Source: a virus (Duplodnaviria > Caudoviricetes). Taken from it: a stretch of DNA of 64,000 nt. The stretch lies in IMG/VR virus record IMGVR_UViG_3300017933_000003, positions 15,653-79,652 of that record; one strand, given 5' to 3'. This document shows positions 4,841-54,281 of this stretch, piece after piece. Position numbers and translations under genes: made by a program. The stretch's first letter is position 1. Each line of letters begins with the position of its first letter. The notes beneath the pieces are model-generated. The model saw nothing but the letters and a program-made list of their open reading frames with translations, did no database searches and had not been told where the DNA came from.

Positions 4841-5734
4841 ATGAAACCAGATTTCGAGACAAATTGTGGATTTTGTGGAAAACTTTTTATCGTCAAAAGA
4901 AAAAGTTATCTCGATCAAATTAGACGAAACAGTAATCATACTTTTTATTGTAGCGACGAATGTCGTCGTGAAAAAGCTAAGACAGGACAATATATAAATT
5001 GTCTTATTTGTGGCAAAGAAGTTTATAAAAAACTAAATGAAATAGAAGCGGGCGCCCGCTTTTGTTCCTCATCTTGCGCAGCCCAATATAATAATCAAAT
5101 CAGATTAACTACAAAAGGCAAACTTAAAAACTTAATTTGTGCCAAATGTGGTTGTGAGTATATAGGCTCAATTCATACTCCTACATCAACAGGGTTATGT
5201 GATTTGTGTGGTAGTGAGTCTAATTGTATTGATTGTGGTGCAATAATTCACGGGAGTTCTGGCATAAAATATTGTGATTTTTGTAGAACAAAAATAGTTT
5301 CTACTAAAATTAAAAACAGAATTAATAATGGAACTTTATTTTCTAAAGCAATTAAATGTGAATATATGTTCAATGATAAAAAGATAAGGTGCGATTCCAA
5401 ATTAGAGTATGTCTGTCTGACTTATTTTCAATCCACATATGATGTGTTAGATATGAAAAGGGCGGATATGGTAATTGCATATATCTTTGATGAAAAAATA
5501 TGTCATTACTATCCTGATTTTGAGATCTCTTTAAAAGATGGAACCAAATATCTCATAGAATGTAAGGGCGTGGTGGGCAAAAAATTATCAGATAAGTGGC
5601 ACGATTATAATAAAAAAGCAGTAGAGAAGAAAAAAGTTTTAGAAAAATGGTGCCAAGAAAACGGATATATACCGTTTTGGTTCGATCAACAACGGCATAA
5701 TAAGATATATAAAAACACGAAAATAGATGCGTAG
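4841..5734 (+). CDS. zinc-finger plus PD-(D/E)XK (TnsA-like) endonuclease
   Basis: CxxC/FCS repeats; DSKLE...YYPDFEI...YLIECKG. Confidence 0.75.
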   Translation: MKPDFETNCGFCGKLFIVKRKSYLDQIRRNSNHTFYCSDECRREKAKTGQYINCLICGKEVYKKLNEIEAGARFCSSSCAAQYNNQIRLTTKGKLKNLICAKCGCEYIGSIHTPTSTGLCDLCGSESNCIDCGAIIHGSSGIKYCDFCRTKIVSTKIKNRINNGTLFSKAIKCEYMFNDKKIRCDSKLEYVCLTYFQSTYDVLDMKRADMVIAYIFDEKICHYYPDFEISLKDGTKYLIECKGVVGKKLSDKWHDYNKKAVEKKKVLEKWCQENGYIPFWFDQQRHNKIYKNTKIDA

Positions 5735-8012: not shown

Positions 8013-8086
8013 GGGTTCATAGCTTAATGGTAAAGCAACCGGCTCTTACCCGGTCGATTAGGGTTCGATTCCCTGTGGACCTACCA
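8013..8086 (+). tRNA. tRNA-Lys(CTT)
   Basis: GGGTTCA/TGGACCT + ACCA; ACCGG-CTCTTAC-CCGGT. Confidence 0.95.
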
Positions 8087-15683: not shown

Positions 15684-16004
15684 ATGTTTCAAGTTTGGTC
15701 TAAAGTCAAAGTCATAGCTTCCGATCTTGTTGGTGATTCTAACACCAAATATTATGGAAATGCGAAGCTTGCAATAATCAGTTATAGTACTGGAACATTT
15801 AGACGCGTCGGATCTTCTGGATTTTCTAGAAAGAGACTTACTTTAAGGATGAGAAAATCTGAGTTCAAATTCCATAATAGTCAAGAGGCTAGATTTGAAA
15901 TTTACACTCCTGATGAGGAATTTCTAATTACTAGGTGGGGCGCAGTTGTTCAAGCATATAGGAACACTGTGATAGTAGAGTTGGAGCCAGTTAATTTATA
16001 TTAA
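15684..16004 (+). CDS. hypothetical protein
   Basis: ORF track. Confidence 0.55.
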   Translation: MFQVWSKVKVIASDLVGDSNTKYYGNAKLAIISYSTGTFRRVGSSGFSRKRLTLRMRKSEFKFHNSQEARFEIYTPDEEFLITRWGAVVQAYRNTVIVELEPVNLY

Positions 16005-16724
16005 ACCAATAGACCGATAACTATAGTATCGAATAATGGACTTTGCTTTATTTTGCTTCCTGTTAAGAACTATTTTATATTTCCCACCATAAATTTGTTC
16101 GGCAAATTTTTTACAATGCTGCCCTCCTATAGACATTTGGTATAGTTGATTTTTGGCGGTGATTATATCTCCATTCATCATTTTATGATCTTGCATTTTT
16201 ACTTCGTAAATATGAGACATGATATCATATGTTTCTAATAATGTTTTTTGCATCGAATATATAAATGATTTACTGGCAGAATATAATTGTGCCCTTGGTT
16301 CTAAATATCCGTTTGATCTATGAGAGAGTGAGATAGAACCATCTCCATCCCAGCATCCTCGAATAAAGTCAGACAAATAAATATTAGGTAATTGTGGAAA
16401 TTGAACAGTTAATGTTTTATTAGGAGTACAATTGTTAGCAACTAACCATTCTCCTATTTTAGTGTTATGTAATCTAAGTCGTAAACATTTGCTATTTGTA
16501 GCAGGAACTAAAGGTAAATTTTTCCCACATAATTTAGATAGTTTTTTAATCCAATTATGATCTGCAGATTTTAGTTCACAGCTATAATAGATTTTATCAA
16601 TAGAGTGTGATTTTTGATATGAGACATTTCCGTCAGTAATAAAAACACCTAGCAAATAATATGAAATGTCATTTTCGTTTGTAAATGATTTTATGTTATA
16701 AATAAATTTATTATTATTTGTCAT
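15996..16724 (-). CDS. LAGLIDADG homing endonuclease
   Basis: YLLGVFITDGN, FIRGCWDGDGS. Confidence 0.9.
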   Translation of the reverse strand: MTNNNKFIYNIKSFTNENDISYYLLGVFITDGNVSYQKSHSIDKIYYSCELKSADHNWIKKLSKLCGKNLPLVPATNSKCLRLRLHNTKIGEWLVANNCTPNKTLTVQFPQLPNIYLSDFIRGCWDGDGSISLSHRSNGYLEPRAQLYSASKSFIYSMQKTLLETYDIMSHIYEVKMQDHKMMNGDIITAKNQLYQMSIGGQHCKKFAEQIYGGKYKIVLNRKQNKAKSIIRYYSYRSIGLI

Positions 16725-16768
16725 ATTCCGTTCTCCTGGACCATATACTAATATATCGTCATATTAGC

Positions 16769-17311
16769 ATGACAGGAGAAAATAAATTCAAAGTGTATGG
16801 ACCGTACCGTCGTCAGTCTGATGGTCGTTCTATTGTTGTCGTAGTTGATGATAATGGTGATACGCAAACTATTTCCTACCCAAAATGGTTGTTGGAAATG
16901 CAATTGGGACGTAAATTAGATCCCAATACCGAGACCGTGGATCACTGGGACTCTAATAAAGAGAACAATGATTTATCTAATCTTCGTATTGTTCCTCGTG
17001 AAGAGCATTCTGCTAATGATACGCGTCGAGTCAAACCTGTCAAATTTAATTGTGCTTGGTGTAAAAAGGAATTTGAAAGGTCTCCTCGTTTAGTGAGAGA
17101 TAAGGCTCGCAAAAATAAAGCGGGCCCCTTCTGTTCTAGGAAGTGTGCGGGTCAATATAGCCGCAAGTTACAACTCAAACTGATCGATAAGTTTGATACA
17201 CAACCAGTTGTAGATAGTGAATATTACAAGAAGAAATATGTTAAAGCTTACGCTCCGCTGATTAGTAGTGATGATTTGATTGATTATTTGTGCGACGTGT
17301 GGGACGAGTAA
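16769..17311 (+). CDS. HNH homing endonuclease
   Basis: TVDHWDSNKENNDLSNL; CAWC and FCSRKC. Confidence 0.85.
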   Translation: MTGENKFKVYGPYRRQSDGRSIVVVVDDNGDTQTISYPKWLLEMQLGRKLDPNTETVDHWDSNKENNDLSNLRIVPREEHSANDTRRVKPVKFNCAWCKKEFERSPRLVRDKARKNKAGPFCSRKCAGQYSRKLQLKLIDKFDTQPVVDSEYYKKKYVKAYAPLISSDDLIDYLCDVWDE

Positions 17312-17915: not shown

Positions 17916-17942
17916 AGATTCGCCCACAAGGGGCAAAGGACT

Positions 17943-18250
17943 AGGGTACGGAACGTAGCACCTAGGTAACTGGGATCCCTCCTCCAAAGGAAATGTCCTC
18001 GGACATTTAATTGGAACCGTTGTTATCTTCGGATACCAACAATAAACAAAGGCGCCCTGAAGGCATTACTTCGCTATCGATGCCGATAAAACCATCCAGC
18101 AATAATAAGCTGGTTAGCTGTTAGCAATTATAGCATCTGTAGCACTCAGCCCTGATAGGCAACCCCGAAAGGGTTGCGATGGGTAAGCAATGAGTTCTAA
18201 GCAGGAAGCATTTGTTCACCAGCTTACTAACGTACGAAACTTCGTACCCT
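17943..18250 (+). ncRNA. ~310-nt structured RNA with periodic AGC units
   Basis: 10-bp closing helix AGGGTACGGA/TTCGTACCCT, UUCG and GAAA hairpins, 11 AGC trinucleotides in 18098-18223. Confidence 0.7.
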
Positions 18251-18269
18251 ATTATTTTTATACTTGAAT

Positions 18270-18309
18270 GAAGTTAGCTGGGCAATCGCTGGATAACTAG
18301 AGGAAAGTT
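18270..18309 (+). pseudogene. truncated 5' fragment of an RNase P RNA
   Basis: GAAGTTAGCTGGGCAATCGCT...GAGGAAAGT directly upstream of the full copy. Confidence 0.6.
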
Positions 18310-18325
18310 CATTGAATAATAAAAT

Positions 18326-18687
18326 GTAGAGTAGCTCGGGTAATCGCTACATAATATGTAGAGGAAAGTACGGGCTTTATAGGACAAGATGCTGGTTAAC
18401 GACCAGATACAGTAATGTAATGGAAAGTGCAACAGAAAATACAACGCCAACTGATAAGACCTAGTCTTATAAAGGGCAAGTGTGAAAAGGCGAGGTAATA
18501 GCTCACCGCATTTACAGTGATGTAAATGGCAAGTGCAAACCCCATCTAAAGCAAGGCAAACAGTAAACGCTTGAGGGCTGTCCGTCCAATGTTTACGGGT
18601 TGCTGCTTGAGTCAATAAGTAATTATTGACCTAGATTAATGATTGCCTGATTTTATACACAGAACCCGTCTTATAGGGCTGCTCTAC
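18326..18687 (+). ncRNA. rnpB: RNase P RNA
   Basis: GAGGAAAGTACGGGC, GGAAAGTGCAACAGAAA, AAACCCC..AGCAAG, ACAGAACCCGTCTTA; P1 GTAGAGTAGCTC/GGGCTGCTCTAC. Confidence 0.93.
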
Positions 18688-19102
18688 TTTTTCTATAATT
18701 AATAATGGCTGTTACTGCAATTTTAGTTTCCTCAACTGTAAGAAAATTATTTCTTATTGAATTGCATTGTTTACAACAAGGTAAAACGTTATCAACAGTA
18801 TATCCTTTAGTATTATCTATTCTGTCTAATCCAGATCCATATTTAGATTTTGCAGCAAAGAAGTCTTCACAATAATAACAAGGTTTAGAAATCAATTTTG
18901 CATATTCATCAATAGTAATTGCCCACTCTTTATGAATTTTAATGCCTCTTTGTTTAGATTTTGCAAAACGAGATCCAATTTTTTGTTGTTGTTTAGATGC
19001 AGCCTCTTTGACTTGTGGTGTTTGTTGGTAACATTTTTTACATATTGGACCAGTATACCACTGATAGCTTTCGTGTGTTCCGCATTTAATGCACGCTTTC
19101 AT
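18671..19102 (-). CDS. HNH homing endonuclease
   Basis: PCYYC...GLDRIDNTKGYTVDNVLPCCKQCN. Confidence 0.85.
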   Translation of the reverse strand: MKACIKCGTHESYQWYTGPICKKCYQQTPQVKEAASKQQQKIGSRFAKSKQRGIKIHKEWAITIDEYAKLISKPCYYCEDFFAAKSKYGSGLDRIDNTKGYTVDNVLPCCKQCNSIRNNFLTVEETKIAVTAIINYRKSRAAL

Positions 19103-19165
19103 ATATTGAAATATATCAGCAATATCATCATTTTAAATGAAAAAAGAATCGTTATTAGGTGTCAC

Positions 19166-19663
19166 ATGAAAAATAAAAATCCCATCACTAAAGGACCCAT
19201 CACCAAGGGACTTGTAGTCGATTGGCAAGAAGCTCGCGAGAAAGCCGATCAACTTGAAGATAAAATAACTGATCGACTTGATTACGTTATTCAAACTATT
19301 TTTGACGCCTTTGGCGTTATATTATACACCTGGTATTTTGGTGATGCAGCACAAGGAGAATTAGGTTCTCTCACTTGGGATGAACCAGAAATATTTATGG
19401 TTTGGGACGCTTCATCTCATGAAGAATTTATCATCCTCGACAGAGATGGGAACGAATTGATAATGGAAGGATCGGTACCTACCCGTTGGCTCTTCCAATC
19501 TTTCGAAGAAGAGCTAAGAGACGGCAAAAGAAAATATGAGGAGCAGGAGTCAGCTCGATTGGCGAAAGTTCTTTCTGTTAAGGAAGCTACTAAAAAGTTA
19601 GCTGCCAGTGCCAAAAAGAAGTTGACCAAAGAAGAGCTAGCAGCCATCAAGAAAACTTTATGA
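19166..19663 (+). CDS. hypothetical protein
   Basis: ORF, start at MKNKNP. Confidence 0.7.
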   Translation: MKNKNPITKGPITKGLVVDWQEAREKADQLEDKITDRLDYVIQTIFDAFGVILYTWYFGDAAQGELGSLTWDEPEIFMVWDASSHEEFIILDRDGNELIMEGSVPTRWLFQSFEEELRDGKRKYEEQESARLAKVLSVKEATKKLAASAKKKLTKEELAAIKKTL

Positions 19664-20298
19664 AAATCAAACTAGCTTACCCTAAAATACCTGATACCTT
19701 GCATTGTCCACTTAAAAACTGTATAGCATTTGAGAAGATAGATGGAACGTGTTTGCATTTTGTCTGGTCTCCTGAACATGGTTTCCACAGTTTTGGAACT
19801 CGAAGGGATCGATTCACTTATATTGATGCTAGCTTTGCTCAGTTTCATCAGGATCATCCCGGGCTGAACGGGTTGGAACCAGCCTTCCAGAAAATCGAGC
19901 AGCCACTGTCAGATTTTCTGATCAAAAATTACTATAGCACCAAAGAAGTTATCATCTTCACCGAATTCCACGGACCTCACTCTTTTGCTGGCACCCACAA
20001 CCTTAAAGAGGAAAAGAAGCTGACCCTCTTCGATGTGCAGGTAGATGGGGCGATGCTGGCGCCAGATGAATTTATAAAACTGTTTGAGCCCTTTGGCGTC
20101 CCCAAGGTGGTCTTTCGGGGAAAGTTCACTGGGCAGCTCTTTATGGATGTGCGCAGCGGCAAGTATCCCGTTGCTGAAGGTGTGGTGGTTAAAGGCATGG
20201 TAGATGGTCAAGTCTATATGGCTAAGATAAAGACGAACGCTTATTTGGCAAAATTGAAGAATCAATTTAAGGATAATTGGCGAGAATATTGGGAATAA
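19660..20298 (+). CDS. ATP-dependent RNA ligase-like nucleotidyltransferase
   Basis: motifs I FEKIDGT, III FTEFHG, IIIa LFDV, IV EGVVVK, V KIK. Confidence 0.8.
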   Translation: MKIKLAYPKIPDTLHCPLKNCIAFEKIDGTCLHFVWSPEHGFHSFGTRRDRFTYIDASFAQFHQDHPGLNGLEPAFQKIEQPLSDFLIKNYYSTKEVIIFTEFHGPHSFAGTHNLKEEKKLTLFDVQVDGAMLAPDEFIKLFEPFGVPKVVFRGKFTGQLFMDVRSGKYPVAEGVVVKGMVDGQVYMAKIKTNAYLAKLKNQFKDNWREYWE

Positions 20299-28418: not shown

Positions 28419-28922
28419 GTGCTAACTATTATCTTCTCCGAAGGACAGACTAATAACCTGTTTCTCAAGTTTTTTCGACCCTTTGTCCATAAATATCGCT
28501 CTACTCATGTCTCTTTCGGCATCGAAGTAGGAGACAAGCCATACATTTTCCACATGTCTTATAAGGGTGCTATTAGGACGCCTCGTGACCGATTTTTAAT
28601 TAAAAATGACATCGTGAAGGAGTATCGTATCCTGCCTGACCTTTCGGAAGAGTTGCAAGAGCACCTCAAATATTTGGGTAAAGCCAAGTATAATCATTTC
28701 TCTGCCATAGTGCATTTCGCTACTTTGCTCTTTCATCCACTCAAATTATTACTGATGTTCTTTAAGATTAGAAATGGGTTTTATTGTAGTAATTTTGCTC
28801 GTCAATTAGATAAAAATAATAAAATTAAATCTTGGAGAAATATTAATATACACTGGGCATCAGTCGATGAATTACAAGTAATTTGTGAAAGCAGCCCAGA
28901 ATTCATGGATATTACTAACTAA
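28419..28922 (+). CDS. permuted papain-like (NlpC/P60, YiiX-like) protein
   Basis: THVS near the N-terminus, YN, then FYCSNF. Confidence 0.55.
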   Translation: MLTIIFSEGQTNNLFLKFFRPFVHKYRSTHVSFGIEVGDKPYIFHMSYKGAIRTPRDRFLIKNDIVKEYRILPDLSEELQEHLKYLGKAKYNHFSAIVHFATLLFHPLKLLLMFFKIRNGFYCSNFARQLDKNNKIKSWRNINIHWASVDELQVICESSPEFMDITN

Positions 28923-29472
28923 TTGTAGTACATCTTTCTTTAATTAGCACTTGTGCTACAAGATGCATTTCTTTGACTGATAGATTATTACTTCTAACGG
29001 AATTACAAAAACTTCCACATGGTTGTACATTATCAGGAGTGTATCCTTTAGTATTATCAATACGATCTAAATTACAACCAGCGATTGTTTTATCACACAA
29101 TAAACCATTACAATAAATACAGGGCAAATCACATAGATCAGTAAATTGTTGGAGTGTTAACGACATTTCTCGCCGTATCTTTTTACAGCGTTTAATTAAT
29201 GCGCTATATCGACCTTTGATAGATGTGTATCGTTTCTTATTTTGAGTAGTCATAGAAAACTTGTATGATTCAGTTTCTTTATAAATTTCGTGATATTTCT
29301 TTTTGCGCCTGCGTTGTTCGGGCTTCTTTTCGAATGCTCGATGGTATGCTTTGGCACATTCTTTACAGGCGCCCGCTCGTTTATTTTGATCATACCATAG
29401 TGGATTGAAATCTTCTATTGGAAGATCTTTCTTGCATTTAATACAAATTTTTGTGATGTCCATGTTTATCAT
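28915..29472 (-). CDS. HNH homing endonuclease
   Basis: PCIYC...NLDRIDNTKGYTPDNVQPCGSFCN. Confidence 0.85.
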   Translation of the reverse strand: MINMDITKICIKCKKDLPIEDFNPLWYDQNKRAGACKECAKAYHRAFEKKPEQRRRKKKYHEIYKETESYKFSMTTQNKKRYTSIKGRYSALIKRCKKIRREMSLTLQQFTDLCDLPCIYCNGLLCDKTIAGCNLDRIDNTKGYTPDNVQPCGSFCNSVRSNNLSVKEMHLVAQVLIKERCTTIS

Positions 29473-30687: not shown

Positions 30688-30761
30688 GGGCGGTTAGTTA
30701 AATGGTATAACATATCCTTTACACGGATAATTCAGGGGTTCGATTCCCTTACTGCCTACCA
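30688..30761 (+). tRNA. tRNA-Val(TAC)
   Basis: cloverleaf, TATCC-TTTACAC-GGATA, ACCA. Confidence 0.95.
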
Positions 30762-53690: not shown

Positions 53691-54281
53691 ATGAAGAAAA
53701 ATATTACCTATGTGGGCACCAAAATTAATGGATTAAAAATCATTGATTATCGTTGTACTACAGGGTCGTCTCGACGCTCATATTTTAAATGTTTATGTAT
53801 ATGTGGTCAGATATTTGAAGCCCGTGCGGAAGCTATTAAAAATGGTCATACGAAAAGTTGTGGTTGTAGAACATCCGAATTAATGTCAGTAAGTCATACA
53901 TTAAATGAAGATGTTGTTGCTAGTAATATTCTATACGGTCGATATCTACATACAGCAAAAAGAAAAGATATTTCCTTTTTATTATCTATTGATGATTTTA
54001 AATCTTTTATTTTCAATAATTGTTATTATTGTGGAGCTCCACCTCGATTGGCAAAAGTTTCTGGGTCAAAAAAGTGGAACATAAAAGACAAGTTTGTATC
54101 TTATAATGGAATTGATCGTATTGATAATAATATAGGGTATATTATTGATAACTGTGTTACTTGTTGTTCTTTTTGTAATGGTGCAAAATCTAATTATTCT
54201 TTAGAAGATTTTCAGAACTGGATCAAAAGATTAGTATCATTTGTAAATGGAAAAAATAATACCAATGACCAAAAAGTTTAA
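53691..54281 (+). CDS. HNH homing endonuclease
   Basis: CLCICG..SCGC; CYYCG...GIDRIDNNIGY..DNCVTCCSFCN. Confidence 0.88.
   Translation: MKKNITYVGTKINGLKIIDYRCTTGSSRRSYFKCLCICGQIFEARAEAIKNGHTKSCGCRTSELMSVSHTLNEDVVASNILYGRYLHTAKRKDISFLLSIDDFKSFIFNNCYYCGAPPRLAKVSGSKKWNIKDKFVSYNGIDRIDNNIGYIIDNCVTCCSFCNGAKSNYSLEDFQNWIKRLVSFVNGKNNTNDQKV

Follow-up and report, generated by a model that had tools for sequence, protein, structure and literature searches.

A type A RNase P RNA gene in a phage contig

The window, by which we mean the whole 64,000-nucleotide stretch analysed here (bases 15653-79652 of a 79,652-bp linear IMG/VR record), carries on its plus strand a gene for a full-length bacterial type A RNase P RNA, rnpB. 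RNase P is the RNA enzyme that trims new tRNAs, its bacterial form is a ribozyme, and the RNA is viewed as a housekeeping ribozyme of cells. In a cmscan search, the gene matched RF00010 (RNaseP_bact_a) far above the gathering score of 100 (E 8e-91), with an untruncated alignment spanning model positions 1-367 of 367 and with all five conserved regions, CR-I to CR-V, aligned to consensus. The original prediction of a bacterial RNase P RNA possessing every conserved region was thereby confirmed, its coordinates lying within 2 nt of ours, and no essential helix proved to be missing from the full covariance-model alignment.

The RNA retains P13/P14, P16/P17 and P18, GNRA loops on P9, P14 and P18, the AAC of L8 and the GGU of L15, the last being the motif that serves the 3'-CCA in type A RNase P RNA. 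P3 is short and P12 is enlarged, and type A elements covary among the members of the clade described below. Deviations at strongly conserved positions are limited to C70A together with G357U (E. coli numbering) and to the closing pair of P12, both of which are compensated. Its GC content of 41.7% resembles that of the window, which is about 40% throughout. The features of the locus are compiled in Table 1.

Table 1. Coordinates of rnpB, its catalytic-helix strands and neighbouring features, given as positions in the window.
Feature	Position	Strand	Remarks
LAGLIDADG homing endonuclease	15996-16724	-	upstream of rnpB
HNH homing endonuclease	16718-17311	+	upstream of rnpB
Diverged copy of the first ~45 nt of rnpB	18272-18312	+	~78% identical; 15 nt upstream of rnpB
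rnpB, full-length bacterial type A RNase P RNA, 362 nt	18328-18689	+	RF00010, 281.3 bits
CR-I and P4 5' strand, GAGGAAAGUACGGGC	18361-18375	+	bulged U69 = 18369; variant A70 = 18370
Second compensated C-G to A-U swap, P12 closing pair A18444-U18481	18444-18481	+	cmscan alignment and structure line
CR-V and P4 3' strand, ACAGAACCCGUCUUA	18659-18673	+	variant U357 = 18669, pairs with A70
HNH/EndoVII-type homing endonuclease, N-terminal zinc ribbon	18671-19102	-	convergent on rnpB
RNA ligase	19660-20298	+	PF09414, phrog_548; orthologues beside rnpB in relatives 44-48% identical

Genomic setting and relatives

The source record has a CheckV completeness of about 18% and is therefore a fragment of a phage genome of several hundred kilobases. 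Besides NAD-salvage genes, the window encodes a helicase, ligases for DNA (NAD-dependent) and RNA, a CYTH protein and several homing endonucleases. The helicase had no cultured relative above 40% identity and yielded no host call, blastn of rnpB against GenBank phages gave no match, and single-protein searches of IMG/VR with the two genes adjoining rnpB retrieved no relatives.

Relatives were located through the RNA rather than through the neighbouring proteins. The nearest RNAs reside on two viral contigs, G008 (IMGVR_UViG_3300049217_000071, 268 kb; RNA at L048:5754-6097, 308 bits) and L044 (IMGVR_UViG_3300035180_002191, 9.9 kb; RNA at L044:3672-4015, 304 bits), and are 82.8% and 81.0% identical, respectively, to the window rnpB over its full length. 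Both are orthologues with the same neighbours and the same convergent overlap with an HNH gene at the 3' end. The three loci share the gene order HNH, coiled-coil, structured spacer, rnpB, convergent HNH/EndoVII, RNA ligase, two small ORFs and CYTH, with protein identities of 40-86% across the block. G008 additionally encodes a terminase-like ORF and 53 tRNA genes, its rnpB being placed within a tRNA-rich region. This shared gene order, along with the RNA and protein identities, indicates vertical inheritance of rnpB in a clade of huge phages rich in tRNA genes.

One could suppose that the contig was wrongly filed as viral, being bacterial or plasmid DNA, and that its rnpB is an ordinary cellular gene, given that many of the small IMG/VR matches to RNase P RNA are provirus flanks and that in one GenBank 'phage' record an RNase P RNA is surrounded by bacterial housekeeping genes. 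Here, however, rnpB sits inside a viral contig rather than in a provirus flank, in a block whose synteny is conserved among phages and extends to a 268-kb contig with a terminase-like ORF and 53 tRNA genes; the window contains phage-type genes and many homing endonuclease genes, and rnpA was not found in the record. We therefore regard misfiling as extremely unlikely.

Two further features accompany the locus. A structured non-coding element of approximately 310 nt (window 17942-18251) lies between the coiled-coil gene and rnpB and is kept in G008 (L048 about 5031-5345); in both contigs it is closed by a helix of AGGGTACGGAA and TTCCGTACCCT followed by a T-run, and it has no Rfam match at the gathering score. 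In addition, a 243-aa ORF (18932-19663, plus strand) and the N-terminal portion of the HNH gene overlap on opposite strands. The ORF occurs in neither relative and has no Pfam, PHROG or IMG/VR relative, and it may be that this ORF or the HNH frame is spurious, or that the ORF is a recent insertion.

Matches to RNase P RNA are frequent in large IMG/VR genomes: 41 of the 50 records tested contained one, including complete genomes of 160-500 kb, and our literature searches found no published description of a phage-encoded RNase P RNA. Among cultured entries, Microcystis phage MaAM05 (MW495066.1, recorded as a 274-kb cultured phage) harbors an unannotated full-length RNase P RNA (L239:2462-2861, 252 bits), although the nature of this stretch is in doubt because the RNA sits among bacterial-looking fabI, engB and mtgA.

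Selection on RNA structure

We aligned the window rnpB with the RNAs of G008 and L044 and a more distant phage copy, L110, obtaining a consensus fold of 95 pairs. With the structure predicted from the same alignment, 33 of these pairs had changed on both sides while remaining paired, compared with 12.3 +/- 2.6 in shuffled alignments, none of which (0/500) reached 33; sliding the partners by 1-3 columns left only 2-8 such pairs. Paired cells amounted to 96.8% versus 86.7% in shuffles, again with the fold derived from the same alignment, and the window RNA forms standard pairs at 94 of the 95 positions. The covarying and standard pairs together indicate that rnpB is under structural selection.

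These counts bear on the possibility that the gene is decaying or inactive, or serves as a decoy that soaks up host RnpA, with the altered P4 helix as a product of decay. A nearly invariant catalytic pair is indeed changed, and the pseudo-5' fragment beside rnpB testifies to local rearrangement. With 94 of 95 pairs intact, however, this is not a decaying copy, and the compensation found at every changed strongly conserved position and the retention of all conserved regions and tertiary-contact loops at 281 bits likewise speak against decay, making such a reading very improbable.

The P4 swap and its rarity

The P4 helix of the window rnpB reads AG(U)ACGGG / CCCGUCU, as had been proposed from the letters alone and as we confirmed from the sequence and cmscan, so that the pair adjoining the bulged U is A70-U357 (18370/18669) and not C70-G357. 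RNAalifold analysis of the four phage RNAs recovered P4 with its bulged U: columns 40-48 pair with 345-352, with the bulge at column 43, in 4/4 sequences, and columns 44/349 are CG in three of them and AU in the window. The accompanying claim of a two-sided swap under structural selection was also borne out, with the pair kept within P4 and the rest of the RNA strongly selected (33/95 pairs changed on both sides). The conservation of C70-G357 is a regularity that stands outside the definition of the RF00010 family.

To gauge how rare the swap is, we relied on exact-pattern searches. Using a 3'-strand pattern with position 357 left free, at least 72 RNase P RNAs on viral contigs, viral or proviral, proved to be C-G, and among the matches listed A-U occurred only in the window. 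The exact 3'-strand motif with U357 was present in 29 IMG/VR viral contigs, none of which had CR-I nearby. The exact variant 5'-strand motif occurred in 15 IMG/VR contigs, which we dismissed as chance matches because none of them holds an RNase P RNA.

Beyond viruses, the variant 5' pattern matched seven times in 185,579 species genomes, with one genuine RNase P RNA, from a Pirellulales MAG, in which G357 is unchanged. That RNA (L221:232-657, minus strand) carries A70/G357 and is otherwise normal. Among 17 matches to the variant pattern in JGI metagenomes (241 million records), L225 and L231 are genuine RNase P RNAs combining A70 with G357, while L232 and L236 were rejected as variant RNase P RNAs owing to broken or poor sequence. 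At the L232 locus (L232:4555-5100), a 5' end that resembles RNase P RNA and carries A70 gives way to AT-rich sequence and a second GGAAAGUGCAACA motif; no CR-V was detected within 480 nt, and rnpB may be interrupted or broken here. When 301 genomes sampled from one phylum were searched with position 70 free, 130 matched and all 130 had C.

These exact-pattern searches of IMG/VR, the 185,579 species genomes and the JGI metagenomes found no other compensated A70-U357 pair. As no second case emerged from the scans of viruses, genomes and metagenomes, the compensated A-U pair is unique within their reach. The three A70/G357 RNAs (L221, L225 and L231) could represent A-G intermediates toward A-U, or sequencing errors.

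Homing endonucleases and a duplicated 5' fragment

The two close relatives keep C70-G357 and differ from the window at another site of CR-V. Their CR-V (L048:6067-6081 in G008 and L044:3985-3999 in L044) reads ACAGGACCCGGCUUA, with G at E. coli position 351, and of the 28 matches to this motif in IMG/VR only G008 and L044 contain an RNase P RNA. Within this small clade, then, the most conserved element of the ribozyme has undergone two distinct rare changes.

The convergent HNH/EndoVII gene terminates within this same element: its stop codon complements the UUA of CR-V, two bases from U357, and the overlap with the 3' end of rnpB is kept in both relatives (L048:6079-6780 and L044:3997-4482). 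Three further paralogues of the gene are found in the window at 640-1146, 28915-29472 and 53691-54281.

Upstream of rnpB, the diverged 5' copy contains the 5' strands of P1 and P2 together with a short P3 hairpin (CUGG-AUAA-CUAG) and GAGGAAAGU, and ends exactly at position 70. It lies within a tandem duplication of 61 nt in which a TTGAAT flank is included. P3 of this copy measures 12 nt, as in the relatives, compared with 15 nt in the real rnpB. The duplicated fragment is absent from G008 and L044, as is the enlarged P12.

This arrangement raises the possibility that the CR-V changes confer immunity against an endonuclease cutting canonical rnpB, with G357T arising first and C70A then re-pairing P4, and with the relatives reaching the same end through A351G. 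It would fit the termination of the HNH/EndoVII gene inside CR-V at two bases from U357, shared by all three members of the clade, the absence of both CR-V variants from every IMG/VR RNase P RNA found outside this clade, the break of the duplicated fragment exactly at position 70 and the two additional endonuclease genes upstream. However, 78 of 80 relatives of the HNH/EndoVII family do not adjoin rnpB, which indicates that the family is not specialised for this gene; no single change is common to the three carriers, and the cleavage site is hypothetical. We consider endonuclease immunity highly doubtful. The closeness of homing endonucleases hints at how phage RNase P RNA genes move and change.

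Protein subunit and tRNA substrates

A six-frame search with PF00825 over the whole 79,652-bp record, representing about 18% of the phage, gave no match to rnpA, in keeping with the earlier statement that the window lacks this gene. G008 likewise yielded no rnpA, nor did four huge phages that carry rnpB and are 94-100% complete, and rnpB without rnpA is thus a common pattern among the rnpB-carrying huge phages searched. Since the RNA without its protein gene is the common pattern, the use of host RnpA by the phage RNA is a natural and plausible reading.

The window contains 18-19 tRNA genes and the whole record 20; examples are located at 1170-1249, 8013-8083 and 30688-30758. CCA directly follows the discriminator in 16 of 19 genes and comes one base later in two more, and most have U at position -1. 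These features give the phage tRNAs the appearance of standard substrates and suit a type A RNase P with an L15 GGU. Part of the tRNA cluster is common to G008, whose P4 is canonical, while an unusual tRNA-Ala pair of the window was not found in G008, a contig that is 62% complete.

Origin of the P4 swap

The window RNA is the most AT-rich of the clade, with a GC content below the 50.7% and 45.2% of its relatives. Five pairs have changed on both sides on the window branch only, and four of these five, in P3, P4, P8 and P18, went from G-C to A-U. The P12 closing pair (Table 1) altered the consensus ACC...AAGG to AAC...AAGU, with C-G kept in both close relatives. As one of several GC-to-AU swaps on an AT-richer branch, the P4 change is most readily accounted for by AT-biased substitution with compensation.

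Alternatively, the A-U pair might be adaptive, altering metal-ion binding or catalytic rate or tuning the ribozyme to unusual phage tRNAs. In favour of this are the catalytic sensitivity of C70, at which C70U shifts the Mg/Ca response (PMC11221534), the metal ions near the tandem G's of the P4 3' strand (PMC4919922), the presence of C-G in all other RNase P RNAs of the at least 72 viral or proviral matches listed and of C70 in 130 genomes, and the occurrence in the window of some unusual tRNA genes not found in G008 (62% complete). Against it, P4 has no role in recognising the tRNA body, the phage tRNAs are standard in their CCA ends and U at -1, part of the tRNA cluster recurs in G008 with its canonical P4, and the swap matches the branch-wide GC-to-AU pattern; moreover, there is a single carrier sequence, with no sign of repeated or sustained selection. 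An adaptive origin accordingly appears rather improbable to us, and the original suggestion that the ribozyme may be tuned to non-canonical phage tRNAs gained no support, since P4 is not a substrate-reading element, most of the tRNAs are CCA-ended with U at -1, G008 shares part of the cluster while retaining a canonical P4, and the GC-to-AU pattern is branch-wide. Compensated drift explains the P4 swap better than tuning to odd tRNAs.

Possible functional effect

P4 is a catalytic, metal-binding helix and not an element that reads the substrate (PMC4919922; PMC11221534). At position 70, the C70U mutation of E. coli RNase P lowers kc by approximately 30- to 250-fold and alters the Mg/Ca response (PMC11221534). 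The window RNA differs from the canonical helix on both strands at this pair. By our own mapping, we take G318/G319 (T. maritima numbering) to be the GG of CCCGGCUU, equivalent to E. coli G356/G357, in which case one of these neighbouring guanines in the P4 3' strand is lost through the swap. Bound metal ions are located near A49, A50, G51, G318 and G319 in T. maritima numbering (reviewed in PMC4919922). Because position 70 matters for catalysis and a guanine near metal ions is lost, a real functional effect of the swap is possible, and its extreme rarity argues that it is not freely neutral in cells. Even so, a re-engineered catalytic helix with a changed metal preference or rate, or else a mark of homing-endonuclease escape, is in our judgement unlikely. 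If it were true, a different pair at this position would be documented for the first time in a natural RNase P RNA, and the function of the phage copy could diverge from that of the host enzyme.

Proposed model and comparison with known systems

In summary, our analysis has provided a model in which a huge, tRNA-rich phage would encode a functional RNase P ribozyme of bacterial type A. During infection, the phage RNA would most likely assemble with the host RnpA protein, and the resulting holoenzyme would cut the 5' leaders off the phage's many tRNA precursors, potentially adding processing capacity. The P4 A-U pair would be a compensated double substitution fixed on the phage's AT-richer branch, with the helix geometry kept and probably little or only a modest effect on catalysis. 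As an accessory copy with the host enzyme as backup, the phage gene may be under weaker constraint than a cell's sole copy, bringing the swap within reach, because an unfavourable intermediate might be more easily passed when host RNase P is available. Judged from sequence comparison, this explanation as a whole, namely a working type A ribozyme that uses host RnpA, processes phage tRNAs and acquired its P4 A-U pair by compensated drift, is in our view likely.

That a phage clade has inherited a full-length copy under selection strengthens the case for huge phages supplying tRNA-maturation machinery of their own. What is new here is a phage RNA of full length whose specificity domain is intact and whose catalytic helix is a natural variant found nowhere else in our searches. 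The gene also constitutes a natural experiment on the catalytic helix's most conserved pair, showing that A-U can occur beside the bulged U when the rest of the gene is under strong structural selection, and it offers enzymologists a ready-made variant whose rate and metal dependence can be compared with those of a C-G revertant.

Compared with E. coli M1 RNA (rnpB, RF00010), the window RNA has the same P1-P18, CR-I to CR-V, bulged U in P4, GNRA loops, L8 AAC and L15 GGU. It differs from bacterial type A RNA in being phage-encoded, with no rnpA found in the record, and in having the A70-U357 pair, a short P3, a large P12 and an AU-rich composition. The E. coli P RNA mutant C70U, obtained by Frank and Pace through in vitro selection (PMC11221534), affects the same P4 position beside the bulged U. 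By contrast with that mutant, in which a U-G wobble accompanies a large catalytic loss, the window rnpB is changed on both sides and keeps a Watson-Crick pair. Theta ribozymes (bioRxiv 10.1101/2023.06.13.544163), which are minimal HDV-like ribozymes located by phage tRNA genes, are likewise phage ribozymes tied to tRNA maturation; they belong, however, to another class of small self-cleaving RNAs, whereas the window rnpB is a trans-acting RNase P.
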